Counted from the stretch's first letter, positions 1,560-17,734 are shown. The stretch: DNA of 64,000 bases from Candidatus Dormiibacterota bacterium (GCA_036495095.1 DASXNK010000107.1:11042-75041), one strand, 5' to 3'. The notes: a model not told the origin generated them from the letters alone. Made by a program: numbers and translations.

Positions 1560-2270
1560 ATGCCGCGGGTGGCGCCGGCACGCGCGCTGATCATCGAGGT
1601 CGACCCGGAATACCGCGCCGTCATCAGCTGCTGCGCCGGCCTCGCCGACGTCACCGCCGAGAGCGTGGCCACGGTCTCCGCCGGGGTGCACCGGCTCAGC
1701 GACGCCGAGTTCGACCTGGTGATCTGGGGCGTCCCGCCCGGCGACCCGCGCCGGGCGCCGGTGATCGCCCAGATCCACGAGGAGAGCACCGCGCCGCTGC
1801 TGCTGCTCGACGAGGCCGACGAGGAGTCGCGGGCGTCGTACGACGCCGGCGCCGACCAGATCCTCCCCAAGCCCTTCGTCCCCGGCCAGCTGGTCGGCGC
1901 GATCAGGGCGGCGCTTCGCGGCCCCGGCCCCACCTCGGTGGTGCCGCTGGCCACCCGCATCGAGCTCGCCGGCACCACCATCGACTCCGAGTCGCGCAGC
2001 ATCACCAGGGGCGACGGCACCGTCTCCTTCAGCAAGCGCGACTGGGAGCTGCTCACCTTCCTGCTCGCCAACCCCGGGCAGTGGTTCACCGCCGAGGACC
2101 TGGTGCGCCTCGCCTGGCGCAGCACCCGGTACTCGACCGAGCAGCTGCGCAGCTACGTGATGCGCCTGCGCCGCAAGATGGCCCCGCTGGAGCTGCCCTT
2201 CGCCGTCAACAGCCAGCAGGGCCGCGGCTACCGCTTCGATCTGGACGGGTCGGGGTCAGGCGGGAGCTGA
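1560..2270 (+). CDS. OmpR-family response regulator (receiver + winged-helix), orphan
   Basis: Receiver-like N-terminus (LIIEVDPEY ... EFDLVIWGV). C-terminal trans_reg_C-like segment (SFSKRDWELLTFLLANPGQWFTAEDLVRLAW ... GRGYRF). A low-GC promoter-like region lies upstream (1380-1555). No adjacent kinase. Confidence 0.7.
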   Translation: MPRVAPARALIIEVDPEYRAVISCCAGLADVTAESVATVSAGVHRLSDAEFDLVIWGVPPGDPRRAPVIAQIHEESTAPLLLLDEADEESRASYDAGADQILPKPFVPGQLVGAIRAALRGPGPTSVVPLATRIELAGTTIDSESRSITRGDGTVSFSKRDWELLTFLLANPGQWFTAEDLVRLAWRSTRYSTEQLRSYVMRLRRKMAPLELPFAVNSQQGRGYRFDLDGSGSGGS

Positions 2271-3755
2271 CCCGGCGACCTCGGTGGCGAGGCGGAGCAT
2301 GTCCTCCTGGGCGCGCCGGTGGTCGGCGCGCAGCGCGGCGGCGCGGGCGCCGAGGGTGCGCGCCGCCTCGGCGCAGCCGGCCGCCATCCGGGTGACCACC
2401 TCGGGGGCGGCGCCGCCGGGGGCGCTGCGGGTCTGCACGATGGCGCGCGGGTCGAGCACCTCGGTGAGGTCGGCACCGGCGAGCCCCAGGCTGCGTCCGA
2501 TCTGCTCGACCGCGGCGGCGTCGAGCATCTCCCCGGTGATGTCGATGCCGCGCAGCCCCTCGCGTCCCGCCCGGCTCACCGCGCGACCGACCACCAGGTA
2601 GGCGGTGCGGTAGTCGACGCCGCAGCTGAGCATCACGTGCTCGGCGAGGTCGGTGGCCTGGGAGAAGCCCTGGAGCAGCGCCTGCTCCATCCGCTCGGGG
2701 TGCACCCCGAGGGTCGCGACCACCTCGGCCATCAGGCGGACGACGCGGCTCGCCAGCTGCATCGAGCGGGGCACCTCGCCCTGGGCGTAGATGAGGTTGT
2801 CGCTGCGTGCCGAGGGGGTCTTGACCACCGCGAGGTAGCCGCTCAGCCGGCCGATCAGCACCCCCGCGGCGCCGCGCACGATTGCGAGCGCGTAGGGGTT
2901 GCGCTTCTGAGGCATGAGCACGCTCGACCGGGTGTAGGGGCCGGCGAGCTCGACGAAGTCGAACTCCTGGCTGTCCCAGATCTCCAGGTCCTCGGCGAGC
3001 TTGGCGAGGTTGGTGACCAGGCTGGCGGCGGTGGCGAGCAGGTCGACGAGGCCGTCGATCTGCCACATCGCGTCGCGGGTGTGCTCGATGACGCCGTCGA
3101 AGCCGAGCAGCCGGGCGATGTGGTCGCGGTCGCTGACCAGCCGGCTGCCGTTGACGCAGCCGGCGCCGCCCGGGCTCAGGTTGACCCAGTCGAGGCAGGC
3201 GAGGAGGCGGTCGGCGTCGCGCAGCGCCGGGTACGCGAAGGTGAGCAGGTAGTGCCCGAAGGTGGACGGCTGGGCCTGCTGGAGATAGGTCTGGTCGGGC
3301 ATCAGCGTGCCCGCGTGCGCCTCGCTCACCGCGGCGACGCTGGCGGCGAACCCGGCGGCCTCGGCGACCAGGTCGACGATCATCGAGCGCAGCAGCACGC
3401 GCAGCGCCACCCGCGCAGCCTCGCGCCGGGGCCGGCCGGCGTGGAGCCAGCCGGCGTCGTCGCCGATGCGCTCGACGAAGTGGCGCTCACGGCTGTTGTA
3501 GGGGTCGCCGTGGATGGCCGCATAGGGAAAGTCGGCCGCCGCCACCCCGTGGGTCTCGACGAGCAGGGCGAGCAGCCGCCGCGCCACCGGCTCGGGGACG
3601 ATGCCGCGGGCACGCAGGTCGAGGACGTGGGCGATGTCGGCGAGGGTGAGGCCCTCGTGGAGCAGCGGCGCGTCGGCGATCTCGAGGGCGAAGCCGGCCT
3701 CGACCAGCGATGCCGCCGGGGCCTCGTCCGAGGCGCCGTGGCCGCCCCGGCTCAC
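2256..3755 (-). CDS. Fumarate-lyase superfamily enzyme, argininosuccinate-lyase-like
   Basis: Contains the class II fumarase/aspartase signature SSVLMPQKRNP. ~500 aa. GTG start overlaps the upstream gene stop (GTGA). Confidence 0.75.
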   Translation of the reverse strand: MSRGGHGASDEAPAASLVEAGFALEIADAPLLHEGLTLADIAHVLDLRARGIVPEPVARRLLALLVETHGVAAADFPYAAIHGDPYNSRERHFVERIGDDAGWLHAGRPRREAARVALRVLLRSMIVDLVAEAAGFAASVAAVSEAHAGTLMPDQTYLQQAQPSTFGHYLLTFAYPALRDADRLLACLDWVNLSPGGAGCVNGSRLVSDRDHIARLLGFDGVIEHTRDAMWQIDGLVDLLATAASLVTNLAKLAEDLEIWDSQEFDFVELAGPYTRSSVLMPQKRNPYALAIVRGAAGVLIGRLSGYLAVVKTPSARSDNLIYAQGEVPRSMQLASRVVRLMAEVVATLGVHPERMEQALLQGFSQATDLAEHVMLSCGVDYRTAYLVVGRAVSRAGREGLRGIDITGEMLDAAAVEQIGRSLGLAGADLTEVLDPRAIVQTRSAPGGAAPEVVTRMAAGCAEAARTLGARAAALRADHRRAQEDMLRLATEVAGSAPA

Positions 3756-4732
3756 AGCGCGCTCCCCGCGCCGGCGGGGGCGAGCGCCACCGCCGTGCCG
3801 CCGGTGTGCCAGAAGAGCACCGGCCCGCCGGCGCCGGCGGCGAGCAGCCGGGGGAGCACGCCGAGCGCCTTGGCGGTGAAGGCGGGGTCCAGGACCAGCC
3901 CCTCGTGGGCGGCGGCGAGGGAGGCGGCTCTCGCCCCCTCGATCGAGGCCTGCCCGTAGCCGGGCCCGCGGGCGTCGTGGACCTCCACCGCGGCGGCCGG
4001 CGGCGGCGGCACGCCGAGGAGCCGGGCGCCGGTGCCGGCGAGCTCCAGCACCCGCGCCGCGGTCTCCTCCACGGGGCGGCTCACCGCGGCGCCGGCCACC
4101 CGCAGCCGCCGGCCCGCCGCGGTGAGGCCGGCGAGCAGGCCCGCCTGGGTCACCCCCGAGCCGGTGGCCAGCAGCAGCAGCGCCGGCTCCACGCCGGCGG
4201 CGTCGAGCTGGTCGAGCGCCTCGGCCGCGGCGGCGGCGTAGCCGAGGACAGCCACGTCCCGGGCACCCCCCCGGGGGATCGCATAGGGACGGCGGCCGGC
4301 GGCGCGCAGCTCCGCGGCGGCGGCCTCCAGCCCGGCGTCGACGGACTCGCGGCGGGGGTCGCCGGTGAAGCGCACCGTGGCGCCGAAGCCGCGGGCGAGC
4401 ACCAGGTTGGGGTGGGGGATCGCCGGCTCGCCGCCGTACAGCACCAGGGTGCAGCCGAGCCCGGCGACCGCGGCCGCGGCGGCGGCTCCCTGGCACCAGC
4501 TGGAGGCGGGGCCGCCGCCGGTGAGGAGCACGTCGCAGCCGGTGGCGAGGGCATCGCCCACCAGGAACTCGAGCGACCGGGTCTTGTTGCCGGCGAGCGC
4601 GAAGCCGCAGAGGTCGTCGCGCTTGCACCAGAGCGGCGGCGCCCCGAGCACGCGCTCCAGCCGCTCGAGGCGCACCAGCGGGGTGGGGAGCAGCGCCAGG
4701 CGCAGCCGGGCGGCGGCGGTGGTCAGCGCCAC
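3752..4732 (-). CDS. PLP-dependent ACC deaminase / D-cysteine desulfhydrase / cysteate sulfo-lyase (CuyA) family enzyme
   Basis: Motif WCKRDDLCGFALAGNKTRSLEFLV matches the ACC-deaminase family lysine region. ~326 aa. GTG start overlaps the upstream lyase stop. Confidence 0.75.
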   Translation of the reverse strand: MALTTAAARLRLALLPTPLVRLERLERVLGAPPLWCKRDDLCGFALAGNKTRSLEFLVGDALATGCDVLLTGGGPASSWCQGAAAAAAVAGLGCTLVLYGGEPAIPHPNLVLARGFGATVRFTGDPRRESVDAGLEAAAAELRAAGRRPYAIPRGGARDVAVLGYAAAAAEALDQLDAAGVEPALLLLATGSGVTQAGLLAGLTAAGRRLRVAGAAVSRPVEETAARVLELAGTGARLLGVPPPPAAAVEVHDARGPGYGQASIEGARAASLAAAHEGLVLDPAFTAKALGVLPRLLAAGAGGPVLFWHTGGTAVALAPAGAGSAL

Positions 4733-6084
4733 GGGTCGGGCTCGGCGGCGAGGGCGGCGCGTCCCCGCCGCACCGCGGCGTCGACGATGGCCCCGGCGCT
4801 GCCCGCGCCGGCGGCGACCGGCGGGCCGCCACCGGCGTCGCCGAGGTCGACGTGGTCGCGGAGCGCCTCCTCCAGGCTCTCGCCGCGCTCCTGACCGGCC
4901 CGCAGCGCCGCCTGCAGCAGGCTCTGGGCGCGGTGCCTGCCGATCCGGGGGGCGAGCTCGGCGAGCAGCGCCTCGGAGGCCGCGTACCCACCGCCGGCGC
5001 CGAGGTTGGCCAGCATCCGTTCGCCGTCCACCTCCAGGCCGTCGAGCAGCCGCCGGGCCAGCGCCAGGGCGGCGCCGGTGAGCAGGCAGGCCTCGGGGAG
5101 GGCGATCCACTCCGCCTTCCAGGCGCGCCCGTCGCGCTCGTGCTCGCCGACCATTCCCTCGAGCAGGGTCGCCGCCTGCTGGCGAACCAGCCGGGCGAGG
5201 GTGCCGAGATGCTCCGCGGCCTCGGGATTGCGCTTGTGGGGCATGGTGATGCTGCCCACCGCACCCGCCGCGGCGGGCTCCCGCAGCTCGCCGATCTCGG
5301 GGCGCTGGAGCTGGTACACCTCGGTGCCGATCCGCGCCAGGGTGGCGGTGACCATCGCCAGCAGGTGGCCGAACTCGGCGACCCGGTCGCGGGCGGTGAG
5401 CCATGGCACCAGCGGGTCGGCGAGGCCGAGGCGGGCGCAGAAGCGCGCCCGCAGCTCGAGGCCGTTCTCGCCGAAGAAGGCGAGGGTGCCGACGCCGCCG
5501 CCGAGCTGGCCGGCGAGCCAGCGCGGCGCCCCCTCGGTGAGCCGCTCGCGGTGGCGCCGGACCTCGTCGGCCCAGGAGGCGGCCTTGAGGCCGAAGCTGA
5601 TCGGCGACCCCGGCTGGCCGTGGGTGCGGCCCGGCATCAGGGTGTCGCGGTGGCGCTCGGCGAGGTCGAGCAGAAGGCCCTCGACCGCACCCAGGTCCCG
5701 CCACACCACCCGTCCGACCCGGCGCATCGCCAGCGCTGTCCAGGTGTCGGTGAGGTCCTGCACGGTGGCCCCGTAGTAGACGTGCTCCGCCGCCTCGGCG
5801 GGCAGCAGCCGCCGCAGCGCCGCGATCAGCCCGAGGGTGGAGTGCGAGGTGCTCCGGGTGACCTCGGCGGCGAGGTCGAGGTCGACCAGCTCGACCCGGG
5901 CGGCGGCCGCGATCGCCTCCGCCGAGGCGGCGGGGATCAGGCCCAGCTCGGCCTGGGTGGCGGCGAGGGCGGCGAGGATGTCCAGCCACGACTGCAGCCG
6001 CGCCTCCTCGTCGAAGACGGCGCGCATCTCGTCGGTGCCCCACAGGTGGGCGTAGAGACGCGAGTCGCTCAGGCGGGCGCCCAT
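4723..6084 (-). CDS. Fumarate-lyase superfamily enzyme, adenylosuccinate lyase / 3-carboxymuconate cycloisomerase (PurB/PcaB)-like
   Basis: Signature GSITMPHKRNP, 454 aa. ATG start at 6084 overlaps the upstream gene stop. Confidence 0.75.
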   Translation of the reverse strand: MGARLSDSRLYAHLWGTDEMRAVFDEEARLQSWLDILAALAATQAELGLIPAASAEAIAAAARVELVDLDLAAEVTRSTSHSTLGLIAALRRLLPAEAAEHVYYGATVQDLTDTWTALAMRRVGRVVWRDLGAVEGLLLDLAERHRDTLMPGRTHGQPGSPISFGLKAASWADEVRRHRERLTEGAPRWLAGQLGGGVGTLAFFGENGLELRARFCARLGLADPLVPWLTARDRVAEFGHLLAMVTATLARIGTEVYQLQRPEIGELREPAAAGAVGSITMPHKRNPEAAEHLGTLARLVRQQAATLLEGMVGEHERDGRAWKAEWIALPEACLLTGAALALARRLLDGLEVDGERMLANLGAGGGYAASEALLAELAPRIGRHRAQSLLQAALRAGQERGESLEEALRDHVDLGDAGGGPPVAAGAGSAGAIVDAAVRRGRAALAAEPDPWR

Positions 6085-6947
6085 GCCGGCTCCGCGATCC
6101 GTGCGACCTCGCCCAGGCCCTCGCGGACCAGCTCCAGCGACGCTCCCCAGGGCACCGTGACCCGCCCCGGCGTCACCTCCAGGTGCTCCTCGAGCAGGCA
6201 GCACTTGGTCAGCACCGGCGCCGGCGCCGCCATCCGCCGCGGGCAGATGTCGATCCGCTCGGCGTCGGCGCCGTAGAACCAGTGGTGGATCTCGCGGGAG
6301 CGCTCGCAGCCGAGCAGCAGCCAGTCGCGGTGGGGAGGATGCTGATCGAGGTAGGCGACCTCCACGCCCTCGAGCACGATCCCCGAGCCCCGGCAGGGCA
6401 GCAGCCGGTCGCGGCCGTCGCCGCCGTTCGCTCCCAGCTCGCGGAGATCGACGAGGTGGGGCACCAGCTCGATGGGGGGCAGGTCGTCGGCCACGGCCAG
6501 CACCCGGCGGCACTGGTCGAACAGCTTGGGCGGCTCCGGCGGCACCACCTCGACGACGGTGATGCGCAGCGGCCGGGGGTCGAGGATGAAGTTCAGGTGC
6601 TCGTAGCGCCCGTGCACGACCACGCAGCGCACCCCGGGGGCGTGCCGCCCGGCGGCGGCGGCGAGCTGGGTGGGCACCGCGGTGTCGACCTCGGCCAGGT
6701 GGAGCAGCGCGCACTCGTGGGGGAGGGCGAGGATCTCCACCGCGGTGATCGGCGAGAAGAGCGGCTCCTCGGTGGCCCGGTCGACCCGCACCACCGCGGT
6801 CTGCTCGCCGTGGCGGGCGATGATGTAGCGGGTCCGCCGGTAGGAGTCGCGGCCGAGCAGGTGCTGCCGGAGCGACGCCGGGTCGAGGGGGCGGTCGAGC
6901 TCGGCGACGGAGACGTCGCGGTAGCGCCGGGGGACGAGGTTGCTCAT
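6069..6947 (-). CDS. Hypothetical protein, operon-embedded
   Basis: 292-aa ORF overlapped at both ends with flanking operon genes. No recognisable motif apart from a conserved-looking C-terminus (LTKCCLLEEHLEVTPGRVTVPWG). Confidence 0.5.
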   Translation of the reverse strand: MSNLVPRRYRDVSVAELDRPLDPASLRQHLLGRDSYRRTRYIIARHGEQTAVVRVDRATEEPLFSPITAVEILALPHECALLHLAEVDTAVPTQLAAAAGRHAPGVRCVVVHGRYEHLNFILDPRPLRITVVEVVPPEPPKLFDQCRRVLAVADDLPPIELVPHLVDLRELGANGGDGRDRLLPCRGSGIVLEGVEVAYLDQHPPHRDWLLLGCERSREIHHWFYGADAERIDICPRRMAAPAPVLTKCCLLEEHLEVTPGRVTVPWGASLELVREGLGEVARIAEPAWAPA

Positions 6948-7732
6948 GTCCCCGCGGCGGCGGCGACCTCACCCTCGCCGCAGCTCAGCTCGATGGTGTC
7001 GGCGCGCAGCCCCAGCCGCAGCGCCTCGAGGCCGAGCACCTCGGCGGGCACCACGTTGCCGAGGCCGGCGTCGGCGCCGAGCCGGCGGATGAACCACGCC
7101 TGCTGGTCCTTGCGGGGAGCCTCGAAGATCACCCGGTGGCGGGTCGCCCGGAGGAGCGCGTCCACCAGCTCGGCGCGGACCGTGCCGTCCGCCGAGTAGA
7201 GCCCGACGGTGCCGCTCTCGCGGCCCTCGGCGACCACCCAGGTGGCGCCGGCCTCGAGGTCGCCGGCGGCCTCCTCGGCCCAGGCGAAGGCGTGCACCGG
7301 GGCGTCCGGCTGCTTCGCCCCGACCTCGGCGAGCACCGTGAACCGGCGCGCGGCGCGCTCGATGAGGTCCCGCTTGGCGGCGAGCGGCAGCCGGCGGGTG
7401 CCGTTGGAGACCTCGACGCAGGGGAAGCCGGCCTCCTCCGCCCAGTCGAGCAGCCGCTCGGCGGCGCCCTGCACCCAGGCCACCTCGAGCAGGGTGCCGC
7501 CCACGCACGCCTCCACCGCGTGCTCCCGGAGAATGGCCACCCTGTCCGCCACCCGAGGATCGAGGTACGCCGTGCCCCAGCCGAGCTTCCAGACGTCGAC
7601 GTGGCCGGCGCACAGGTCGAGGAGCGCGGACATCTCCGGGAGCGGCATCCCGCGGTCGAGAACGTGGGTGATCCCCGCTCGCCGGGGCTTCGAGCTGCGC
7701 GAGGGGAGCTCGAGGAAATCGGGATGCGGCAT
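6944..7732 (-). CDS. comA: (2R)-phospho-3-sulfolactate synthase (ComA) family protein
   Basis: N-terminal SKPRRAGITHVLDRGMP matches the ComA KPRxxGLTxVxDKG pattern. ~262 aa. ATG start at 7732. Confidence 0.7.
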   Translation of the reverse strand: MPHPDFLELPSRSSKPRRAGITHVLDRGMPLPEMSALLDLCAGHVDVWKLGWGTAYLDPRVADRVAILREHAVEACVGGTLLEVAWVQGAAERLLDWAEEAGFPCVEVSNGTRRLPLAAKRDLIERAARRFTVLAEVGAKQPDAPVHAFAWAEEAAGDLEAGATWVVAEGRESGTVGLYSADGTVRAELVDALLRATRHRVIFEAPRKDQQAWFIRRLGADAGLGNVVPAEVLGLEALRLGLRADTIELSCGEGEVAAAAGT

Positions 7733-7762
7733 TTCTTCGATAGTAGATGCGCATTTCGTCCC

Positions 7763-8740
7763 GTGCAAGTTGGGCCGCCGGTGACCGAGCTCGACGCGGT
7801 GGTGCGGACCGTCCGCGAGGGGCCGGGACTGCGCGCCAAGGCAGCCCTCGCGCTGGTCAGCGACGTGTTCGGGCCCAGCGACTGGACCGGCGGTCCCGGC
7901 GACGACGCCGCCGTCGTCGACGCCGGCGGGGGCCGGGTGGTGGCCGGTGGCGAGGCGCTCTGGCCGCCCTTCGTGGCCGCCGACCCGCGGGGCGCGGGCA
8001 TCGCCGCGGTGGTCGCCAACGTCAACGACGTCTGCGCCATGGGGGCGCGGCCGCTCGCGATCCTCGACACCGTGATCGCCCCCGAGCCGGTGGCGCGCCT
8101 GGCCCTGGAGGGGATGCGCCACGCCGCCGCCCTCTACGGGGTGCCGGTGGTGGGCGGGCACCTGACCATCCGCGATGGTCCGCCGGCGATCTCCGCCTTC
8201 GGGCTCGGCGAGCTGCGCGGCCCGGTGCTCAGCTCCCGCCACGTCGCCCCCGGTCAGGCGCTGCTCCTCGCCTGCTGCCTGGAGGGGACGATGCGCGCCG
8301 ACTTCCCCTACTTCTCCTCCCTGGCGGAGCGGGGCGAGCGCCTCGCCGGGGACGTCCGGCTGCTCCCCGAGCTCGCCGAGGAGGGGATCTGCGTCGCCGC
8401 CCGCGACGTCAGCATGGCCGGGGTGCTGGGCTCGCTGGCGATGCTCCTCGAGCCCACCGCCGCCGGCGCCTGCGTCGACCTCGACGCCCTGCCCCGGCCC
8501 GCCGGGGTGCCGCTGACCAGCTGGGTGATGGCCTTTCCCGCCTACGGCTTCCTGCTCTGCGCCGACCCCGGTGCCGTCGAGGCCTGCCGGGCCCGGTTCG
8601 CCGCCCGCGGCCTCGCCTGCGAGGTGATCGCCACCGTCGACGGCGGCGGCGAGCTGCGGGTGCGTGGGGGAGGGGAGGAGCGGCGGGTGCTCGACCTCCG
8701 CAGCGAGCCGGTCACCGGGCTGCGGCTGAGGGCGGAGTGA
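7763..8740 (+). CDS. AIR synthase-related (PurM/HypE/ThiL superfamily) protein, sll0787-like
   Basis: PurM-like N- and C-domains (AAVVANVNDVCAMGARPLAILDTV ... GGHLTIRDG ... ARDVSMAGVLGSL). Divergent from comA by ~30 bp. GTG start chosen in frame. Confidence 0.65.
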   Translation: MQVGPPVTELDAVVRTVREGPGLRAKAALALVSDVFGPSDWTGGPGDDAAVVDAGGGRVVAGGEALWPPFVAADPRGAGIAAVVANVNDVCAMGARPLAILDTVIAPEPVARLALEGMRHAAALYGVPVVGGHLTIRDGPPAISAFGLGELRGPVLSSRHVAPGQALLLACCLEGTMRADFPYFSSLAERGERLAGDVRLLPELAEEGICVAARDVSMAGVLGSLAMLLEPTAAGACVDLDALPRPAGVPLTSWVMAFPAYGFLLCADPGAVEACRARFAARGLACEVIATVDGGGELRVRGGGEERRVLDLRSEPVTGLRLRAE

Positions 8741-9912: not shown

Positions 9913-10678
9913 GGGTCGCCTCGACGCCGCGGACGTCCCCGTCCTCGTCGACGAGCACGCCGGGGTCCGCGTAGCCGAGGCGGGCGAGGTCGCCGGCGAG
10001 CGCGCCCGCCTGGGCACCGCCGAGCTCGAGCAGGAGCGCGCCGCCTCGCCGGAGGAAGCGGACGCTGCCGGCGACGACGCGGCGGAGGACCTCGGTGCCG
10101 TCGGGGCCGCCGTCGTAGGCCAGCGCCGACTCGAAGGCGAAGGTGTCGCGCTGCAGCAGCGGCAGCTCCGGGGTGGGCACGTAGGGCACGACCGCCACGA
10201 CGACGTCGACGCGTCCCTCGAGGGTGGGCGGCAGCGGGGCGAAGAGGTCGCCGCGGTATGCCTCGACGCCGTTCGCCGCCGCGCAGGCGACGGCACGCTC
10301 GTCGAGGTCGGAGCCCACCACCCGCGCCCCGGGGTGGCGGGTGGCCAGCACCCGGGCGATCGCCCCCGACCCGGTGCAGAGGTCGATCGCCACGCCGTTC
10401 GCGGGCAGGCGCTCGGCGGCCCGGCACGCGAGCCGCTCGCTCTGCCAGCGGGGGACGTAGACCCCGGGGTCGACGCGGACCCCCACACCGCAGAACACGA
10501 CGCCGCCGGTGATCCAGGCGAGCGGCTCGCCGGTGAGCCGGCGCGCGACCAGCGACTCGAGGAGGCCGGCGTCGCCGGCGGCGCACGCCAGCAGCTCGCC
10601 GGCCTCCTCCGCCGCCGCGATGAAGCCGGCGACCGCCAGCCTGGCGGTGAGCACCTCGAGGTCGTTGGCCATCCGCAC
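9902..10678 (-). CDS. Class I SAM-dependent methyltransferase, HemK/PrmC-like
   Basis: Motif IDLCTGSGAIARVLA (SAM-binding GxGxG) and HemK-like N-terminal region. 258 aa. Confidence 0.7.
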   Translation of the reverse strand: MRMANDLEVLTARLAVAGFIAAAEEAGELLACAAGDAGLLESLVARRLTGEPLAWITGGVVFCGVGVRVDPGVYVPRWQSERLACRAAERLPANGVAIDLCTGSGAIARVLATRHPGARVVGSDLDERAVACAAANGVEAYRGDLFAPLPPTLEGRVDVVVAVVPYVPTPELPLLQRDTFAFESALAYDGGPDGTEVLRRVVAGSVRFLRRGGALLLELGGAQAGALAGDLARLGYADPGVLVDEDGDVRGVEATLRS

Positions 10679-10761
10679 CAGTACACCACGGGCACACCGC
10701 CGTCACCGTCTCGTTACCCGGTGCGGAGTAGTGGCCGCCGTATACTCGGCGCCGGATAGTC

Positions 10762-11439
10762 ATGAACGAGCCACGCCGCGACATCACCAACCCCCTCGCG
10801 CTGGCGGTCCTCGCGCTGCTCTTCGAGCGGCCGATGCACCCCTACGAGATCGCCTCGCTGATGCGCGAGCGCGCCATCCACGAGGCGATCAAGCTCAACT
10901 ACGGCTCGCTGTACACCGTCGTCGACCTGCTCCTCCGCCACGGGCTGATCGAGGCCCAGAGCACCGCTCGCGACGGGCGGCGCCCGGAGCGCACCGTGTA
11001 CCGGCTGACCGACGCCGGCCGTGCCAGGTTCCGGGGCTGGCTGCGGGAGCTGCTCCGCACCCCCGCCAAGGAGTACACCCAGTTCGCCGCCGGGCTCGCC
11101 TTCGCCGCCGCGGTGGGCATCGACGAGCTCGGCTCGCTGCTCGAGGAGCGTGCCGGCCGCATCGAGGCCGAGCTCGCCGAGGCGCGAGGGATCTTTGCGG
11201 ACCTCACCGCGAGGGGCCTGCCCCGGCTCTTCACGCTCGAGGGCGAGCACGCGATGGTGCTCCGCACCGCCGAGCTGGAGTGGGTCCGCGGCGTGATCGC
11301 CGCCATCGCCGGCGGCCGCCTCGCCCTCCCCACCGCGGAGGAGATGGCCGTCCTCCACCAGAACTTCCCCACCGCCGCGCCGATGCCGGCGCAGAGCGAC
11401 GGATCCGCACCTTCACCCCGAGAGGAGACGCCCCTGTGA
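10762..11439 (+). CDS. PadR-family transcriptional regulator
   Basis: N-terminal winged helix LALAVLALLFERPMHPYEIASLM ... GSLYTVVDLLLRHGLIE is typical of PadR. Confidence 0.8.
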   Translation: MNEPRRDITNPLALAVLALLFERPMHPYEIASLMRERAIHEAIKLNYGSLYTVVDLLLRHGLIEAQSTARDGRRPERTVYRLTDAGRARFRGWLRELLRTPAKEYTQFAAGLAFAAAVGIDELGSLLEERAGRIEAELAEARGIFADLTARGLPRLFTLEGEHAMVLRTAELEWVRGVIAAIAGGRLALPTAEEMAVLHQNFPTAAPMPAQSDGSAPSPREETPL

Positions 11440-12383
11440 TCGAGACCAATGGGCTGCGCCGCAGCTTCACGACCCGGCGGGGCGAGGTCGAGGCCGTCGC
11501 CGGCATCGACCTCCGCGTCGACGCCGGCGAGATCGTCGGCTTCCTCGGCCCCAACGGGGCGGGGAAGACCACCACCCTGCGGATGCTGACCACCCTGCTC
11601 GTGCCCAGCGGCGGCGAGGCCACCGTGGCCGGCTGCGACCTGCTCCGCGAGCCCCGTCAGGTGCGCGAGCGGATCGGCTACGTCGCCCAGGGCGGCTCCA
11701 CCGATCCCACCGTCACCGGCCGCCACGAGATGGTGCTCCAGGCCCGCCTCTACGGGATGGACCGCGCCACCGCCGAGGCGCGCGCCGCCGAGGTGCTCGG
11801 CGCCCTCGACCTCACCGCCTGCGCCGACCGCAAGGGCGGCACCTACTCGGGCGGCCAGCGCCGCCGCCTCGACCTCGGGCTGGGCCTGGTCCACAAGCCG
11901 CAGCTGCTCTTCCTCGACGAGCCCACCACCGGGCTCGACCCGCAGAGCCGCGCCCACCTCTGGGACGAGATCCGCGGCCTCCGCGAGCGGGGCACCACGG
12001 TGTTCATCACCACCCACTACCTCGACGAGGCCGACGCCCTCTGCGACCGCCTGGCGATCATCGACCACGGCCGCATCGTCGCCGAGGGCACCGCCGAGGA
12101 GCTGAAGCGGGATGTCGCCGGCGACGTGGTCACCGTGGGCGTCCTCGAGGACGTCGACGCGGCGCTGCGGCTGCTCCAGCACCAGCCCTTCGTGCGCGAG
12201 GCCACCGTCGACGAGGGCACCGTGCGCCTCTACGTGGAGCGCGGCGAGGCCGCCATGCCGCTGATCCTCCGCCTCCTCGACGGCGGCGGGCTGACCCTGC
12301 AGACCATCTCGCTGGCGCGGCCGTCGCTCGACGACGTGTTCCTCCGCCAGACCGGCCGCTCGCTCCGCGACGAGGCCGCATAG
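11436..12383 (+). CDS. ABC transporter ATP-binding protein (DrrA-like)
   Basis: Walker A GPNGAGKTT, signature YSGGQRRRL, Walker B LLFLDEPTTGLD. Start overlaps the PadR stop (GTGA). Confidence 0.85.
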   Translation: MIETNGLRRSFTTRRGEVEAVAGIDLRVDAGEIVGFLGPNGAGKTTTLRMLTTLLVPSGGEATVAGCDLLREPRQVRERIGYVAQGGSTDPTVTGRHEMVLQARLYGMDRATAEARAAEVLGALDLTACADRKGGTYSGGQRRRLDLGLGLVHKPQLLFLDEPTTGLDPQSRAHLWDEIRGLRERGTTVFITTHYLDEADALCDRLAIIDHGRIVAEGTAEELKRDVAGDVVTVGVLEDVDAALRLLQHQPFVREATVDEGTVRLYVERGEAAMPLILRLLDGGGLTLQTISLARPSLDDVFLRQTGRSLRDEAA

Positions 12384-12389
12384 GAGACC

Positions 12390-13154
12390 GTGATGAGAGT
12401 CCTCCGCGACAGCTGGCTGGTCTTCCAGCGGAGCATGGGCCAGACCCTCCGAAACCCGGTGTGGGTCGTGGTCGGGCTCATGCAGCCGATCTACTACCTG
12501 TTCCTCTTCGGCCCGGTGTTGAAGAAGGTCGCCGAGTCGTCGCCCGACTACGGCGGCAACGCCTACGACATCTTCGTCCCCGCGCTGCTCGTGCAGATGG
12601 CGCTCTTCGGCTGCGTCTTCGTCGGCTTCGGCCTCATCGCCGAGCTGCGCTACGGGGTCATCGAGCGGATGCGCGTGACCCCGATGAGCCGGCTGTCGAT
12701 GCTCCTCGGCCGGGCTGGCCGCGACATCGCCGTGCTGCTCTTCCAGTCGGCGCTGCTGGTGGTGATGTCGATCCCCTTCGGCCTGCACATCACCGCGACC
12801 TCGATCGCCATCATCAGCGTCCTCCTGGTGCTCATCGGGCTGGGGATGGCCTGCCTCTCCTACGGCCTCGCGCTCAAGCTGCGCAGCGAGGACGCGATGG
12901 CGCCGCTGCTCAATGCCATCTTCCTGCCGATCATGCTGCTCAGCGGCATGCTGCTTCCTCTGAGCCTGGCTCCCGCCTGGTTGCAGGGGGTGGGCCACGC
13001 CAACCCGTTCTACTACGCGGTCGAGGCGGCCCGGAAGGCGTTCCAGACCCCGGTCGCGGGCGGAACGGTCCTGGGTGGCATCGCGGTCGCCGCCGCTCTC
13101 GCCGCCGTCACCATCACCTGGGCGGCCCGCTCCTTCGGGCGGTCGGTGGCCTAA
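12390..13154 (+). CDS. ABC-2 type transporter permease (DrrB-like)
   Basis: 254-aa polytopic hydrophobic protein immediately downstream of the ATPase. Confidence 0.8.
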   Translation: MMRVLRDSWLVFQRSMGQTLRNPVWVVVGLMQPIYYLFLFGPVLKKVAESSPDYGGNAYDIFVPALLVQMALFGCVFVGFGLIAELRYGVIERMRVTPMSRLSMLLGRAGRDIAVLLFQSALLVVMSIPFGLHITATSIAIISVLLVLIGLGMACLSYGLALKLRSEDAMAPLLNAIFLPIMLLSGMLLPLSLAPAWLQGVGHANPFYYAVEAARKAFQTPVAGGTVLGGIAVAAALAAVTITWAARSFGRSVA

Positions 13155-13648
13155 ACCGGTCCCAGCGCGATCACCATGTCCTGGTGCGGCCTGCCGAGAT
13201 AGTCGGCAGGCCCACCCAGGGCGGTCCAGCCGAGGCGGCGGAAGAAGCGCACGTTGGCCACCTGCACGTGGGCGCGCATCACCCGGCCGCCGCGCTCGCC
13301 GGCGGTGCGCACCGCGTAGCGCACCAGCGGTTCGGCGACGTGGCGGGCCCGGTAGGCGGGCAGCACGCTGAGCCGGTCGCCCACCCAGACGCCCTCGCCG
13401 TCGAGGTCGAACAGCCGCACCGTCCCCGCCACCTCGCCGTCGCAGAAGCCGAGCACGTGGAGGGTCGTCGGGTCGGCGTCGCGGTCGTCGAGGTCGGTGA
13501 TCGCGAAGATCCCCTGCTCGTCGACGAAGACGCGCTCGCGGATGCGCAGGTGCACCTCGAGCTCGCCCGGCGAGGCCACCGGCCGGCAGTGGACGGTGGG
13601 CGGGCTAGTGGAGAGGGCGAAGGGGGATGCGCTCGAGGTCGTCACCAC
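13151..13648 (-). CDS. GNAT family N-acetyltransferase (MSMEG_0567/Sll0786-like)
   Basis: GNAT core RIRERVFVDEQ ... GTVRL. Sits immediately downstream of the radical SAM gene; the annotated start overlaps the rSAM 3' end, so the true start may be internal. Confidence 0.65.
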   Translation of the reverse strand: MVTTSSASPFALSTSPPTVHCRPVASPGELEVHLRIRERVFVDEQGIFAITDLDDRDADPTTLHVLGFCDGEVAGTVRLFDLDGEGVWVGDRLSVLPAYRARHVAEPLVRYAVRTAGERGGRVMRAHVQVANVRFFRRLGWTALGGPADYLGRPHQDMVIALGPV

Positions 13649-14741
13649 CGCTGCTCCGTTCCATGACTCCCATCACCGAGCACGCCTGGCAGCGGGCGCA
13701 GCCGGCGCGCACCGTCCCGGAGCTGATGCCGCGGGCCTGGAGGTGCGGCACCACCCGCCGGTAGATCGCGTCCATCCGCTCCGCCGGCGGCGGCGAGCAC
13801 GCCTCCATCAGGCTGCCCGGCACCGGCCGCAGCGGCACCACGAAGGGATAGACGCCGAGGTCGATGGCGCGCAGGCAGCCCTGCACGGTGACCTCGGGGT
13901 CCTCGCCCATGCCGATGATCACGTAGGTCGAGACCTGGCCGCGGCCGAAGAGCTCGACCGCCCGCTCCCAGGCGGCGAAGTAGCCCTCGATGCCGGTGCG
14001 CGCCTTCGCGGGGGCGATGCGGGCGAGCACCGCGGGGTCGAAGGACTCGACGTGGATGCCGACCGAGTCGACGCCGGCGTCGTGGACCCGGTCGAGCGCC
14101 GCGAGGTCGCCCGGGGGCTCGAACTGCGCCTCGATGGGCAGGCCGCTCGCCTCCTTGATCGCCGCCGCGCAGCGCGCCAGGTAGAGGGCGCCGCGGTCGG
14201 GGCCGTGGGTGCTGCCGGTGGTGAGGGTGACGTCGACCGCGCCGTCGAGGTCGCGCGCGGCCACCGCCACCGCGGCGAGGTGCTCGGGTCGCTTCACCCG
14301 CACCGTGCTCCCCGCCTGCAGGGTCAGCTCGATGCCGCAGAAGTGGCACTGGTCCTCGGTGTCCCAGTACGCGCAGGTCTGGATCACCGTGCTCGCCAGC
14401 GAGTCGAGGTGGAGGAGGGCGATCTTCCAGTAGGGGATGCCGTCGTCGGTGGTGAGGTCGTAGTACCGGGGACGCGCCGGCGCCGCCGCCGAGGCGAGGC
14501 GGACGCCCCCGCGGTAGATGCCCCAGCCCTCGTCCTCGCGTCGCATGGTGTACGGCGACCCGGCGACGTACGCGGCCGTCACCGGGACGGTCACCGGCAC
14601 CCCCTCGACGTGGATCATCCCCGCGTCGGAGGGGCCCGCGCCGCCACGCCGGGCCTCGACCGGCCCCTCCAGCCGCACGCCGCGGCTCTGCAGCTCGGTG
14701 AGCAGCCGTCCCAGGTCGGGCGTCACCGGAACAGTGGCCAT
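13605..14741 (-). CDS. Radical SAM protein (MSMEG_0568-like)
   Basis: Cys cluster CAYWDTEDQCHFC plus a C-terminal CARCQAC motif. ATG at 14741 preceded by a GGAGG-type RBS. ~378 aa. Confidence 0.65.
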   Translation of the reverse strand: MATVPVTPDLGRLLTELQSRGVRLEGPVEARRGGAGPSDAGMIHVEGVPVTVPVTAAYVAGSPYTMRREDEGWGIYRGGVRLASAAAPARPRYYDLTTDDGIPYWKIALLHLDSLASTVIQTCAYWDTEDQCHFCGIELTLQAGSTVRVKRPEHLAAVAVAARDLDGAVDVTLTTGSTHGPDRGALYLARCAAAIKEASGLPIEAQFEPPGDLAALDRVHDAGVDSVGIHVESFDPAVLARIAPAKARTGIEGYFAAWERAVELFGRGQVSTYVIIGMGEDPEVTVQGCLRAIDLGVYPFVVPLRPVPGSLMEACSPPPAERMDAIYRRVVPHLQARGISSGTVRAGCARCQACSVMGVMERSSGGDDLERIPLRPLH

Positions 14742-14857: not shown

Positions 14858-15481
14858 TCACTCCTGCTCGAGATACCGGCGCAGCTCCTGGGTGGCCTTC
14901 GTCCAGGACTCGGCGTCGGCGAAGGTGCGGGCGTCCTCGACGGTGGTGCCGGGTGCGTGGTCGCCGCTGCCGGGGTCGAGACGCAGCCGCTGGAGGCCGT
15001 ACTCGGGGCGCCCGGTGGCCGGGTCCGGGTCGATGTACAGGTGGAGGGCCTCGCCGCTGCGGACGTGCATCTCCAGGCGGCGGTGGCCGGTGCGCTCGGG
15101 GCGGCCGCTCTCGTGCAGGACCACCCAGGCACCGCCCCGGTCGCGCGCCTCGGAGATCAGCCGCAGCGCACGCAGCCGTTCCAGCGCACCCAGGATCTCC
15201 CGGTGCCGGATGCCGAAGGCGGCGCCGGCGATCAGCCCCAGGTCGAGCTCCTCGGCGGCCATCCCGGTGCGCGCCAGGAGGCCGTCGAGGGTCTCCGGCG
15301 CCCGGGGGAAGGCGGCGGCCAGCTCCTCCACCGCGGTGTGCGCGCGGAGCTCGTCGGCGAACGCGCGGACCAGCAGCCCGGCGCGCTCGTAGAGGTCCGG
15401 ACGGACCATCACGACGGGGTAGAGGCGGGCCTCGTCCTCCCGCCACCGCCGCACCAGGGCGGCGATCTCCTGTTCATTCAT
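14858..15481 (-). CDS. Hypothetical protein (possible Nit1C-cluster accessory protein)
   Basis: 207-aa ORF with high GC3 and no recognisable motif. Lies upstream of the rSAM/GNAT pair. Confidence 0.45.
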   Translation of the reverse strand: MNEQEIAALVRRWREDEARLYPVVMVRPDLYERAGLLVRAFADELRAHTAVEELAAAFPRAPETLDGLLARTGMAAEELDLGLIAGAAFGIRHREILGALERLRALRLISEARDRGGAWVVLHESGRPERTGHRRLEMHVRSGEALHLYIDPDPATGRPEYGLQRLRLDPGSGDHAPGTTVEDARTFADAESWTKATQELRRYLEQE

Positions 15482-15587: not shown

Positions 15588-16541
15588 ATGAGGCACACGG
15601 TCGTGCTGGCGCTGGGCGGCAACGCCCTCACCCCTCCGGACCAGTCAGGGGCCTGGGAGCAGCAGCGCGCCAACGCCGTGCCCCTCGCCCGCGCCGCCGC
15701 CGCCCTTCTCCACGCCGGCTGGCGGGTGGCGATCAGCCACGGCAACGGCCCCCAGGTCGGCGCTCTCGCGCTGCAGCAGGAGGCGGGCGCCTCCGGCGTC
15801 GCCGCCCAGCCGCTCCACGCGGTGGGGGCGATGACCCAGGGCCAGATCGGCAGCCTGCTGGCGATGGCGCTCGCAGAGGTCTGCGACGGCGGCGTCTCGG
15901 TGGTCTCCGTGGTCACCCACATGGTGGTGGCCGAGCCGGCGCCGGGCGCGGTGCCGACCAAGCCGATCGGCCCCTTCTACCCGCGGGAGCGGGCGCTGGA
16001 GCTGGCCGCGGAGCGGGGCTGGGCGGTGGTCGACGACGCCGGCCGGGGCTGGCGGCGGGTGGTCGACTCCCCCGAGCCGCTGGAGATCGTCGAGGCGCGG
16101 GCGGTCCGCGACCTCGTCGATGGCGGCCACCTGGTGATCGCGTGCGGCGGCGGCGGCATCCCGGTGACCCGCCGCGACGGCCGCCTCGACGGGGTCGAGG
16201 CGGTGATCGACAAGGACCTCGCCGCCTGGCGGCTGGCGGTGGAGCTGGGGGCGGGCGTGCTCGCGCTGGTCACCGGGGTGGACTGCGTCAGCCTCGACCA
16301 CGGCACCCCTCGCGAGCGGGCGATCACCGAGATGTCCCTGGCCGAGTCGGAGGCACTCGACAGCGCCGGGCACTTCCCCCCGGGGAGCATGGGTCCCAAG
16401 GTGGCCGCCGCCCGCCGCTTCGTCCGCGACGGCGGCGAGCTCGCGGTGATCACCTCGGCGGAGCACGTGCTCGAGGCGGTCGAGGGACGGCACGGCACCC
16501 GCATCGTCGCCGGCACGGGCACCGTGAGGGCGTCGGCTTGA
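15588..16541 (+). CDS. arcC: Carbamate kinase
   Basis: ALGGNAL, ISHGNGPQVG, KPIGPFY, ACGGGGIPV, EAVIDKDLA and GSMGPKV motifs all match the carbamate kinase family. Confidence 0.8.
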   Translation: MRHTVVLALGGNALTPPDQSGAWEQQRANAVPLARAAAALLHAGWRVAISHGNGPQVGALALQQEAGASGVAAQPLHAVGAMTQGQIGSLLAMALAEVCDGGVSVVSVVTHMVVAEPAPGAVPTKPIGPFYPRERALELAAERGWAVVDDAGRGWRRVVDSPEPLEIVEARAVRDLVDGGHLVIACGGGGIPVTRRDGRLDGVEAVIDKDLAAWRLAVELGAGVLALVTGVDCVSLDHGTPRERAITEMSLAESEALDSAGHFPPGSMGPKVAAARRFVRDGGELAVITSAEHVLEAVEGRHGTRIVAGTGTVRASA

Positions 16542-17734
16542 GCTCCGCGCCGGTGGCGCTGCTCACCTACTCGACCAAGCCGCGGGGCGGGGTGGTGCAC
16601 ACCGTCGAGCTCGCCGAGGCGCTCCACGACGCCGGCCGCCCGGTGCACATCGTCACCCTGGGCGACCCCGACCAGGGCTTCTACCGCCCGGTGCGGGCGC
16701 CCCACACCATCCTCCCCGCGCCCGCGTCCGCCGCCACCCTCGAGGAGCGGGTGACCGCGGCCGTCGACGCCCTGGCGGAGGGCCTGGCCCCGCTGGCGGG
16801 ACGCTTCCGGATCCTTCACGCGCAGGACTGCATCGCCGCCCGGGCGGCGGCGCGGGTGCGCGACCAGGGGGCTCGAGCGCTGGTGGTGCGCACCGTCCAC
16901 CACGTCGACGACTTCACCACCCCCGCGCTGATCGACTGCCAGCGGCGGGCCATCCTCGAGCCCGATCACGTGCTGGTGGTCAGCGAGCAGTGGCGCCGGC
17001 TGCTCGGCGAGGACCCCGGGGTCGAGGCGGAGGTGGTCCCCAACGGGGTCGACGCCGAGCGCTTCTCCGGCCCGGGCGCCGTGGACCCGGCGGAGTTGCG
17101 CGCCCGGGTGGGGGCCGAGGGCCGCTTCCTCTTCCTCACGGTCGGGGGGATCGAGCCGCGCAAGGGCAGCGCCGAGCTGCTCGAGGCGATGGCGGCGCTG
17201 TGCGGCGAGGCGGGGCCATCGCCGGTGCTGGCGGTGCTCGGCGGCCACTCGTTCCAGGACCACTCCGCCTACCGCGAGGCGGCGCTGGCGCGGGCCACCG
17301 ACCGGGGCCTCCGGCTGGGGACCGACGTGGTCGTGCTCGGCACCGTGCCCGACGCCGAGCTGGTGGCGTGGTATCGGGCCGCCGACGCGTTCGTGCTGCC
17401 CTCGACCCGGGAGGGGTGGGGGCTGGCGGTGCTCGAGGCGCTGGCCGCGGAGCGGCCGGTGGTGGCCAGCGACATCGAGGTGTTCCGCAGCTATCTGACC
17501 GACGGCGAGACCGCCCTGCTCGCGCCCGCCGGCGACGCCGGGGCGATCGCCGCGGCGATGCGGCGGCTGGTCGCCGACCGCGGGCTGCGCGAGCGCCTCG
17601 CCGGCGCCGGGCCCGCGGTGGCGGCGCGCTACAGCTGGGCGGCGAGCGCTCGTCGGCACGGCGAGATCTATGACCGCCTGGCGCCGGTGGCGCCCCCCGC
17701 CCGCTGGGCGGGACGCTTGGCCGCGCGCCGGTAG
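16538..17734 (+). CDS. GT4 family glycosyltransferase (possible MSMEG_0565-like)
   Basis: C-terminal GT-B motif VLPSTREGWGLAVLEALAAERPVVASD. TTG/GTG start overlaps the arcC stop. Confidence 0.75.
   Translation: MSSAPVALLTYSTKPRGGVVHTVELAEALHDAGRPVHIVTLGDPDQGFYRPVRAPHTILPAPASAATLEERVTAAVDALAEGLAPLAGRFRILHAQDCIAARAAARVRDQGARALVVRTVHHVDDFTTPALIDCQRRAILEPDHVLVVSEQWRRLLGEDPGVEAEVVPNGVDAERFSGPGAVDPAELRARVGAEGRFLFLTVGGIEPRKGSAELLEAMAALCGEAGPSPVLAVLGGHSFQDHSAYREAALARATDRGLRLGTDVVVLGTVPDAELVAWYRAADAFVLPSTREGWGLAVLEALAAERPVVASDIEVFRSYLTDGETALLAPAGDAGAIAAAMRRLVADRGLRERLAGAGPAVAARYSWAASARRHGEIYDRLAPVAPPARWAGRLAARR

Follow-up and report, generated by a model that had tools for sequence, protein, structure and literature searches.

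A complete predicted coenzyme M biosynthesis operon joined to Nit1C/gpr-type genes in an uncultured soil bacterium of the Dormibacterota

A 64,000-nucleotide stretch of DNA from a Candidatus Dormiibacterota bacterium (GCA_036495095.1, DASXNK010000107.1:11042-75041; the window) contains a compact group of enzyme genes at positions 2256-17734, and the question it raises is which pathway such a combination could serve. The original prediction regarded it as a cryptic small-molecule biosynthetic locus that carries its own resistance genes and corresponds to no described pathway. We find it probable that the locus is a composite of three layers, namely an operon (xcb) for the biosynthesis of coenzyme M (CoM), a nitrilase-less set of Nit1C/gpr-type genes with their partners, and a lineage-specific insertion, with CoM acting as a small thiol or cofactor outside of alkene metabolism.

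The window is ~75% G+C, which fills raw lists of open reading frames (ORFs) with spurious frames, and genes were therefore called using a log-odds score of G+C at third and second codon positions (GC3/GC2). Families were assigned by Pfam and NCBIfam scans with the curated NCBIfam cut-offs. Every type of gene that had been predicted is present in its place, and the proposed translational coupling is real, as seven same-strand junctions overlap by 4-16 bp. Three further genes had gone unmentioned, coding for the DUF7714 protein XcbA, a PrmC-related methyltransferase and a 207-aa protein (Table 1).

The five genes at 2256-7732 are well supported as a complete, intact and coupled operon for bacterial CoM biosynthesis. 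This pathway was worked out in Xanthobacter autotrophicus Py2 and uses five enzymes (PMC9457059): XcbB (ComA) joins sulfite and phosphoenolpyruvate, XcbC converts phosphosulfolactate to sulfoacrylate and phosphate, XcbD adds cysteine, the pyridoxal phosphate (PLP) enzyme XcbE converts 3-sulfopropionyl-cysteine to sulfoethanethioaldehyde, and the [2Fe-2S] protein XcbA carries out the reduction to CoM. In the window the genes are consecutive on the minus strand in the order xcbB(comA)-xcbA-xcbD-xcbE-xcbC and overlap by 4-16 bp at every junction (ATGA at ComA/XcbA, 16 bp at XcbA/XcbD, 10 bp at XcbD/XcbE and GTGA at XcbE/XcbC). The most likely product, as predicted from these genes, would be CoM (2-mercaptoethanesulfonate), made by the published bacterial route.

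The individual matches are as follows. XcbA scores 310.8 bits with PF24830 and 341 bits with the NCBIfam XcbA family (cut-off 150), is 40% identical to Xanthobacter XcbA, and has five cysteines conserved among the window, Py2 and Mycolicibacterium chubuense NBB4 proteins, the last from an ethene oxidiser. XcbD scores 626.4 bits with CoM_syn_XcbD (cut-off 600) and is 48% and 62% identical to its Xanthobacter and NBB4 counterparts. The best model for XcbC is CoM_syn_XcbC (439 bits, cut-off 575; 39% identical to Xanthobacter, 48% to NBB4), and it has the SS-loop SVLMPQK at residue 278; an SS-loop motif is present in XcbD too. The two are distinct members of the aspartase/fumarase superfamily, XcbC of the argininosuccinate-lyase-like and XcbD of the adenylosuccinate-lyase-like kind. 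XcbE had been predicted as a CuyA/ACC-deaminase-family PLP enzyme, and it is of the D-cysteine desulfhydrase/ACC deaminase family: CoM_syn_XcbE is the best model (283 bits, cut-off 450) with CuyA second at 222 bits, and identity is 47% to Xanthobacter XcbE and 50% to NBB4. ComA matches PF02679 at 246 bits and arch_ComA at 234 bits (cut-off 280), shares 42% identity with Xanthobacter XcbB and 53% with the NBB4 protein, and its start giving 262 aa is the same as in the gene call on the related contig L001. Sub-threshold scores for XcbC, XcbE and ComA might suggest a different pathway, a possibility that we reject because NBB4, a genuine CoM user, gives sub-threshold scores as well (XcbC 396, XcbE 328 and ComA 204 bits, with XcbC, XcbD, XcbE and ComA all under the cut-off). 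The operon itself is thus a new member of a known pathway. The view that the locus corresponds to nothing described does not survive these matches: five genes belong to the published CoM pathway (PMC9457059), three others pass Nit1C/gpr cut-offs, and the AIR-synthase-like (AIRS-like) protein finds its best match there as well, below the cut-off.

Exact-protein matches to the region are soil-metagenome contigs (JGI 3300036845; Logan SRR11835593), and the nearest genomes are metagenome-assembled genomes that bear the labels Candidatus Dormibacterota, "Chloroflexota" or Chloroflexia and whose XcbA is 83-95% identical. Public metagenomes contain more than 2,000 close XcbA homologues, and cultured strains of Pseudonocardia, Streptomyces, Nonomuraea and Methylocystis have them as well, with no genes of epoxide metabolism in the vicinity. 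Among the cultured carriers are Pseudonocardia spinosispora DSM 44797, P. alaniniphila, P. yunnanensis JCM 9330, P. sulfidoxydans NBRC 16205 and Streptomyces chiangmaiensis JCM 16577. The operon's contig setting consists of ordinary cellular genes, among which no plasmid or mobility genes were detected.

To place the operon among its relatives, 14 XcbA-family proteins were aligned, one genome per species was scanned, and 80 loci were taken with 10-kb flanks; unless noted otherwise, locus counts are from tblastn of all window proteins against 82 related loci. XcbA is found in all 82, XcbD in 77, ComA in 76, XcbE in 66 and XcbC in 62. The neighbouring genes recur as well: the AIRS-like gene in 59 loci, an OsmC-family gene in 56, the GNAT in 46, the radical SAM enzyme (rSAM) in 39, the carbamate kinase (CK) in 35, the GT4 glycosyltransferase in 31 and the nitrile hydratase beta subunit in 12. 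A second count, in which genes were called and clustered across all related loci, adds recurrent families, namely AllG (PF06545; 48 loci), a CoA-disulfide-reductase-like (CoADR-like) flavoprotein (47), the MSMEG_0572 family (39), FdrA/AllF (34) and a helix-turn-helix (HTH)-cupin regulator (29). Within the 38 loci that have at least ~8 kb on both sides, the CoADR-like gene is present in 33, AllG in 31, AIRS and the MSMEG_0572 family in 30 each, GNAT in 26, OsmC in 25, rSAM in 24, GT4 in 22, FdrA in 21 and CK in 20.

The arrangement of these genes is also conserved. AIRS is divergent from ComA in 48 of the 57 loci scored as carrying it and is the tightest conserved partner of the xcb operon; other frequent adjacencies are XcbC-AllG (38), rSAM-GNAT (33) and FdrA-CK (29). 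The 48-bp gap between comA and the AIRS-like gene is presumed to be a shared promoter region. In some lineages (L023, L038 and L073) the modules are rearranged and yet stay in the neighbourhood, which argues for selection on the linkage and not for inherited order alone. The loci span Dormibacterota and many Actinomycetota orders, and the same pairing occurs on a Methylocystis plasmid. The co-location of the enzymes is beyond chance and recurs in dozens of distantly related genomes. Most of the enzymes lie in a multi-gene neighbourhood conserved across phyla and are not scattered housekeeping genes, so that the conserved synteny on which the original prediction depended does exist for the enzymes. 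The xcb and Nit1C-type genes form a conserved chromosomal supercluster in soil Dormibacterota and Actinomycetota.

Two loci illustrate this organization. A 200-kb metagenome contig (L086), found separately through its AIRS homologue, has the whole set within ~18 kb, in the order CoADR-like, MSMEG_0572, AllH, AllG, OsmC, XcbC-E-D-A-ComA, and, divergent from xcb, AIRS, GNAT, rSAM, an amidohydrolase, a homologue of the 207-aa protein, CK, AllF and GT4. Plasmid pSS37A-Re-1 of Methylocystis iwaonis SS37A-Re (L089; NZ_AP027143.1, 212342-237217), a cultured alphaproteobacterial methanotroph, likewise has a canonical Nit1C set and OsmC beside a complete xcb operon, with DUF1116/AllG, MSMEG_0565 glycosyltransferase, an FdrA-like protein, a cupin regulator, sll0787 AIRS, GNAT and rSAM to one side and OsmC and ComA-XcbA-XcbD-XcbE-XcbC to the other. 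It differs in being plasmid-borne, in keeping a Nit6803-family nitrilase and a Pnap_2097-family protein, and in that its proteins are 34-60% identical to those of the window. The PGAP names at this locus include Nit6803 nitrilase, MSMEG_0568 rSAM, GNAT, sll0787 AIRS and MSMEG_0565 glycosyltransferase. The 207-aa protein, which has no Pfam or NCBIfam match, is a recurrent upstream neighbour of rSAM, with homologues in 10-17 loci, in L086 and on the Methylocystis plasmid.

The second layer resembles a cluster that was defined in 2005 as Nit1C (PMC1199592) and includes sll0783-0787, MSMEG_0565-0572 and Pseudomonas nitBCDEFGH. In Mycobacterium smegmatis this cluster (MSMEG_0565-0572) is under GlnR control, confers resistance to peroxide, to which it owes the name "gpr", and increases more than 100-fold in expression when nitrogen is lacking (PMC6039565). 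Three window proteins exceed the cut-offs of its families: the radical SAM enzyme (TIGR04043, MSMEG_0568 family, 396.4 bits, cut-off 303.7), the GNAT (TIGR04045, 99.3 bits, cut-off 68.45) and the GT4 (TIGR04047, 378.9 bits, cut-off 259.85). The radical SAM enzyme has a variant cluster motif, C118-x8-C127-x2-C130, and a C-terminal C343-x2-C346-x2-C349; a PDB sequence search with it gave no usable match. Read from its longer start, the GNAT gene overlaps the last part of the radical SAM gene, an arrangement also seen in L086. The AIRS-like protein has sll0787 as its nearest family (AIR_rel_sll0787 as best model, 267.3 bits, cut-off 321.3) and is 37-46% identical to canonical plasmid-borne sll0787 proteins. 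Its closest solved relatives are PurL, SelD and PurM, and a role as a HypE-type S-carboxamide dehydratase was rejected because the HypE match is marginal (26 bits with NCBIfam; PDB E = 0.008) and these three are closer.

The window differs from the canonical clusters in several respects. The order in Acetobacter and Methylorubrum is MSMEG_0572, nitrilase, rSAM, GNAT, AIRS, glycosyltransferase, MSMEG_0570, MSMEG_0569, whereas the window genes are on two strands, are interrupted by the insertion, and are joined to xcb, CK/AllFG, OsmC and CoADR-like genes that the Acetobacter and Methylorubrum operons lack. A scan of the window finds no MSMEG_0572/Sll0783, MSMEG_0570 or MSMEG_0569 flavoprotein, and no Nit6803/sll0784-family nitrilase is present among the window genes scanned or the annotated recurrent families of 83 loci. 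The MSMEG_0572 family occurs in 39 related loci, as noted, while the loci examined yielded neither MSMEG_0570 nor MSMEG_0569 and have a CoADR-like flavoprotein instead. Two ORFs to the right of the GT4 gene (17744-19852), a 150-aa orphan (17744-18196, minus strand) and a 537-aa FAD amine-oxidase/CrtO-like protein (18239-19852, plus strand), were considered as an MSMEG_0572 homologue and as the Nit1C flavoprotein respectively, and both were rejected for want of a family match and of homologues in the related loci.

These two ORFs also mark one edge of the system. Genes to the right of 17734 have homologues in none of the 82 loci, and the conserved cluster thus ends there, as had been predicted. 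The predicted left edge at 2256 is not a boundary, and the unit continues through OsmC and the nitrile hydratase beta gene before it exits the window. The OmpR-family regulator that lies between is lineage-specific, with a homologue in just 4 of the 82 loci. Sequence beyond the left edge was read from L001, on which the gene at 32-697 is present and identical, and it contains nitrile hydratase alpha and a beta-like accessory protein, AllG, an HTH-cupin regulator and a CoADR-like flavoprotein. The latter (CoADR/Nox-type) has the invariant single-cysteine active-site motif YSPCGIPY, and OsmC, which has NCBIfam OsmC-like matches, has two cysteines invariant in 45 of 45 family members. The nitrile hydratase genes (beta, alpha and beta-like accessory; L001 10191-11823) lie ~1.5 kb past the 3' end of xcbC and are present in 12-13 related loci; beta scores 194.8 bits (cut-off 152.2) and alpha 300.2 bits (cut-off 249.85) with NCBIfam models. 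Nitrile hydratase may be a stand-in for the nitrilase that these Nit1C-type clusters lack.

The carbamate kinase scores 328.7 bits with arcC (cut-off 358) and 268.2 bits with NF009007 (cut-off 266), and its gene overlaps that of the GT4 (TTGA). Its setting in relatives recalls allFGH-allK of Escherichia coli, which encodes an oxamate carbamoyltransferase and a carbamate kinase: in related loci CK co-occurs with AllF/FdrA, AllG (PF06545, DUF1116) and AllH (PF11392, DUF2877). The window departs from this pattern in having CK only, with AllG just past the left edge and no allantoin-pathway genes.

Other small genes recur near these modules. In 13 loci (e.g. L023 16695-16952) the MSMEG_0572-family gene has a conserved ORF of ~85 aa ahead of it, and at L086 930-1718 the 85-aa ORF and MSMEG_0572 are called as one 262-aa protein, through either a true fusion or an error of gene calling. 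Another family, of 98 aa and without a family match, is present in 27 loci. In several Pseudonocardia loci LarE and LarC, of nickel-pincer cofactor biosynthesis, are found a few kilobases upstream of xcb (L062 5419-6258; L078 6982-8187).

Compared with Xaut_5051-5055 of Py2, the five window enzymes are all reciprocal best matches, are similarly co-operonic, and keep the XcbA cysteines and the SS-loops, but the Py2 order is A-B-C-D-E (B-A-D-E-C here), the Py2 genes are on a megaplasmid, and the window is without the adjoining 2-hydroxypropyl-CoM lyase/epoxyalkane:CoM transferase (EaCoMT), 2-KPCC and dehydrogenases (PMC9457059). The order ComA-XcbA-XcbD-XcbE-XcbC is identical on pMYCCH.01 of NBB4 and pNOCA01 of Nocardioides sp. 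JS614, to which the window proteins are 48-62% and 44-58% identical with similar model scores, although these are plasmid clusters beside alkene monooxygenase, CoA-transferases and short-chain dehydrogenases/reductases, with EaCoMT on a plasmid of the same strain. The operon could on this basis have the conventional role of supplying CoM to the metabolism of epoxides or alkenes (ethene, propene, vinyl chloride), the genes for which would lie in another part of the genome, with the Nit1C-type, CK and OsmC genes as functionally unrelated neighbours. Every experimentally known bacterial use of CoM is in alkene or epoxide metabolism (PMC9457059, PMC11507031), and the NBB4 and JS614 etn-linked clusters share with the window not only the gene order; they also carry a divergent CoADR-like flavoprotein. 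However, a tblastn search with EaCoMT (Xaut_5047) gives no match in the window or in any of the 82 loci, yet the gene is on the same plasmids as xcb in Py2, JS614 and NBB4, which in a plasmid search are the only ones with EaCoMT-like genes (at least 46% identity); the Methylocystis xcb plasmids have none. No monooxygenase is found in the rest of the window, nor an alkene monooxygenase in the related loci, and the alkene-type clusters of NBB4, JS614 and Py2 are without AIRS, GNAT, rSAM, CK, GT4 and OsmC neighbours, while a linkage that persists through rearrangement argues for a shared function. A weak additional sign is that, among the top 120 EaCoMT homologues in a collection of 5.8 billion proteins, the named close matches are Proteobacteria and one Anaerolineae, and none of those named is from Dormibacterota or Actinomycetota. 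We regard the conventional role as quite unlikely.

A different proposal is that CoM, or a close sulfonate analogue, is an intermediate, from which the GT4, GNAT, AIRS-like and radical SAM enzymes would build a larger, new thiol or cofactor. The analogy is with mycothiol, which is built by a GT4 and a GNAT, and MshA (95.8 bits) and BshA (67 bits) appear as secondary matches for the window GT4. To judge from the NCBIfam model names, MSMEG_0567 of M. smegmatis is a GNAT-AIRS fusion; the AIRS-like gene is tightly coupled to comA, and the conserved neighbours include OsmC and a thiol-disulfide-reductase-like protein. The same glycosyltransferase, GNAT, AIRS and rSAM nonetheless occur in canonical Nit1C operons that lack xcb, such that their substrate is not generally CoM, and several xcb loci keep AIRS without GT4, GNAT or rSAM within 10 kb (e.g. 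L009, L012 and L041). With this evidence on its two sides a derivatised thiol seems unlikely, if still worth bearing in mind.

The third layer is a 4.4-kb block at 8737-13154 with the AlkZ-like, PrmC-related methyltransferase, PadR, DrrA and DrrB genes, which separates AIRS from GNAT. It includes the three genes that had been taken for classic self-resistance and regulation functions, and it is a lineage-specific insertion outside the conserved system. DrrB is found in 4 of the 82 loci, AlkZ and PadR in 3 each and the methyltransferase in 2, all from the closest Dormibacterota relatives; DrrA is found in 10, and its matches outside close relatives are just 33-44% identical. The window shares the block with its closest relatives (L001, L003, L005, L006 and L022), with a content that varies among them, whereas in L017, L025, L073 and most Actinomycetota the GNAT directly abuts AIRS or ComA. 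A repeat search over positions 1-20 kb of the window gave low-identity GC-rich matches only, and no boundaries of insertion-sequence or direct-repeat type were found for 8737-13154.

The AlkZ-like protein matches the Pfam AlkZ-like domain PF06224 over its full length (222.5 bits) and has the motif H40-A-T-D43. This fits the H-phi-(S/T)-(D/E) motif of AZL2, a subgroup of HTH_42 (AlkZ/YcaQ) proteins described in Streptomyces, where no such protein was found within 20 kb of a biosynthetic cluster (PMC9040887), while the genome here is from Dormibacterota. The (Q/H)-phi-Q motif of cluster-associated AZL proteins is not found in the glycosylase, judging by motif. PDB sequence searches with the protein gave no usable match, and its assignment as a putative AZL2-type glycosylase is accordingly one by motif. 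The methyltransferase scores 167.7 bits with TIGR03704 (cut-off 248.8) and the ATPase 347.6 bits with the drrA model (cut-off 312.45). The AIRS-like and AlkZ-like genes overlap by GTGA, as do PadR and DrrA, and the former coupling makes it probable that the AlkZ-like gene is co-transcribed with AIRS in this lineage.

These observations bear on the proposal that the locus is a cryptic secondary-metabolite cluster for a sulfonated or carbamoylated glycoside, possibly DNA-alkylating, with the AlkZ-like, PadR and DrrAB proteins serving in self-resistance and export. The synteny of the enzymes across many genomes is in keeping with it, as are the GTGA coupling just described, an adjoining ABC-2 exporter pair in L086 (at another position), and a DrrA-like ATPase within 10 kb in 10-11 loci. 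Against this, AlkZ, PadR and DrrB are confined to the closest relatives, the HATD motif of the glycosylase is of the AZL2 type, which in Streptomyces has no association with biosynthetic clusters, ABC-2 exporters are common and the DrrA similarity outside the lineage is low, and five of the genes are explained by a known primary cofactor pathway. Nor is there a polyketide synthase, non-ribosomal peptide synthetase, terpene or RiPP (ribosomally synthesized and post-translationally modified peptide) core enzyme among the genes scanned. Such a cluster appears very unlikely; the framing as a self-resistant cryptic biosynthetic gene cluster is largely wrong, and the original interpretation as a whole is partly supported.

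Under the composite reading, CoM would be made as a small thiol, with the CoADR-like enzyme maintaining it in reduced form, and would serve an OsmC-type peroxidase and/or the enzymes of Nit1C/gpr type and of carbamoyl transfer. The setting may be nitrogen starvation or peroxide stress, which would fit the M. smegmatis gpr phenotype. A broader version, to which we give only tentative credence, has CoM as a small thiol or cofactor that is widespread in soil Dormibacterota and Actinomycetota and in some Proteobacteria and works with the Nit1C/gpr genes, the CK module, OsmC and the CoADR-like protein in a CoM-dependent peroxide defence or nitrogen scavenging, the nitrogen sources in the latter perhaps being nitriles, cyanide or carbamoyl compounds. 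Purely as speculation, an S-cyano-CoM/S-carbamoyl-CoM cycle could be imagined in which nitrile hydratase or nitrilase, AllFGH and CK would yield NH3, CO2 and ATP.

Several points weigh against the composite reading. XcbC, XcbE, ComA and the AIRS-like protein score under their NCBIfam cut-offs, and the case for CoM as the product draws on identities of 39-62% and on operon structure. The loci were picked by XcbA similarity and are phylogenetically non-independent. AllF/FdrA, AllH, the MSMEG_0572 family and the 98-aa family are absent from the 64-kb window, which makes the local form of the supercluster an eroded and split one. No xcb genes accompany the canonical Nit1C clusters on Acetobacter and Methylorubrum plasmids; Nit1C thus needs no CoM genes in cis, and CoM is not a universal Nit1C substrate. 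Lastly, genes for CoM-dependent enzymes could lie in other parts of these genomes.

Table 1. Features at the left end of the window, with positions counted from its first nucleotide
Feature	Coordinates	Strand	Model or remark
Nitrile hydratase beta	32..697	-	NCBIfam nitrile_beta
OsmC/Ohr-family peroxiredoxin-like protein	683..1120	+	PF02566 (on L001)
OmpR-family (Trans_reg_C) regulator	1560..2270	+	convergent with xcbC
XcbC-like aspartase/fumarase-superfamily enzyme (Lyase_1)	2256..3755	-	CoM_syn_XcbC
XcbE-like PLP enzyme (PALP/ACC-deaminase family)	3752..4732	-	CoM_syn_XcbE
XcbD, predicted 3-sulfopropionyl-cysteine synthase (Lyase_1)	4723..6084	-	CoM_syn_XcbD
XcbA-family (DUF7714) [2Fe-2S] thioaldehyde reductase, predicted	6069..6947	-	PF24830, XcbA_fam
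XcbB/ComA, predicted phosphosulfolactate synthase, first gene of the operon	6944..7732	-	PF02679
Divergent intergenic region comA/AIRS-like, 48 bp, relatively AT-rich	7733..7780	.	direct sequence reading
sll0787-type AIR-synthase-like (PurM-superfamily) ATP-dependent enzyme	7781..8740	+	AIR_rel_sll0787
AlkZ-like (HTH_42) DNA glycosylase	8737..9912	+	PF06224
PrmC-related methyltransferase	9902..10678	-	TIGR03704
PadR regulator	10762..11439	+	
DrrA-type ABC ATPase	11436..12383	+	drrA model
DrrB-type ABC-2 permease	12390..13154	+	
MSMEG_0567/Sll0786-family GNAT	13151..13648	-	TIGR04045; alternative start 13579
MSMEG_0568-family radical SAM enzyme	13605..14726	-	TIGR04043
207-aa protein without known family	14858..15481	-	
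Carbamate kinase (CK)	15588..16541	+	arcC, NF009007
MSMEG_0565-family GT4 glycosyltransferase	16538..17734	+	TIGR04047

The remaining 46 kb of the window contains ordinary genes, including a lactate permease and dehydrogenase, a chromate transporter, RND pumps, PhzF, a LigD primase-polymerase and a glycogen debranching enzyme; neither an Rfam gathering scan nor a tRNA scan gave any match in the window. A gene resembling FMN-dependent L-lactate dehydrogenase/oxidase (21358-22401, minus strand) is divergent from the lactate permease (22491-24107, plus strand), and the pair at 21358-24107 is probably a lactate-utilisation unit unrelated to the xcb and Nit1C genes. A DinB/MDMPI_N protein (mycothiol-dependent maleylpyruvate isomerase N-terminal; 32622-33428) possibly has a bearing on the low-molecular-weight thiol of the organism. 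Two large RND (AcrB/MMPL-type) transporter genes in tandem (1062 and 1053 aa), separated by a 157-aa ORF, occupy 35918-42739, and a stand-alone LigD primase-polymerase domain (PF21686, 312.7 bits) at 46754-47791 is followed by a 186-aa ORF without a family. A 1112-aa regulator with an adenylate/guanylate cyclase domain, AAA_16 and TPR repeats is encoded at 57122-60460 (minus strand), and a family of ~1050 aa that is weakly similar to it (25-29% identity) is present in seven related xcb loci.

According to a 2024 paper, CoM biosynthesis genes are known from no organisms other than methanogens and aerobic bacteria that use alkenes (PMC11507031). The complete xcb operon described here, which belongs to an uncultured soil bacterium of the Dormibacterota and lies among ordinary genes on its contig, does not conform to that restriction, and in the literature searched we found no report of a wide occurrence of xcb outside alkene oxidisers, and no description of a conserved fusion of xcb with a nitrilase-less Nit1C set, a carbamoyl-transfer module and thiol-redox enzymes. 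For genome mining, it follows that an AlkZ-like glycosylase and a DrrAB exporter beside unusual enzymes need not flag a genotoxin cluster. Elsewhere Nit1C/gpr genes have been connected with nitrogen starvation, with the assimilation of cyanide and with resistance to peroxide, and their linkage to xcb suggests a second biological role for CoM. This linkage is testable in culturable strains, with the Methylocystis iwaonis strain a ready experimental system. If a CoM-dependent system is indeed what these genes encode, it would provide the first biochemical handle on Nit1C, which has been enigmatic since 2005.

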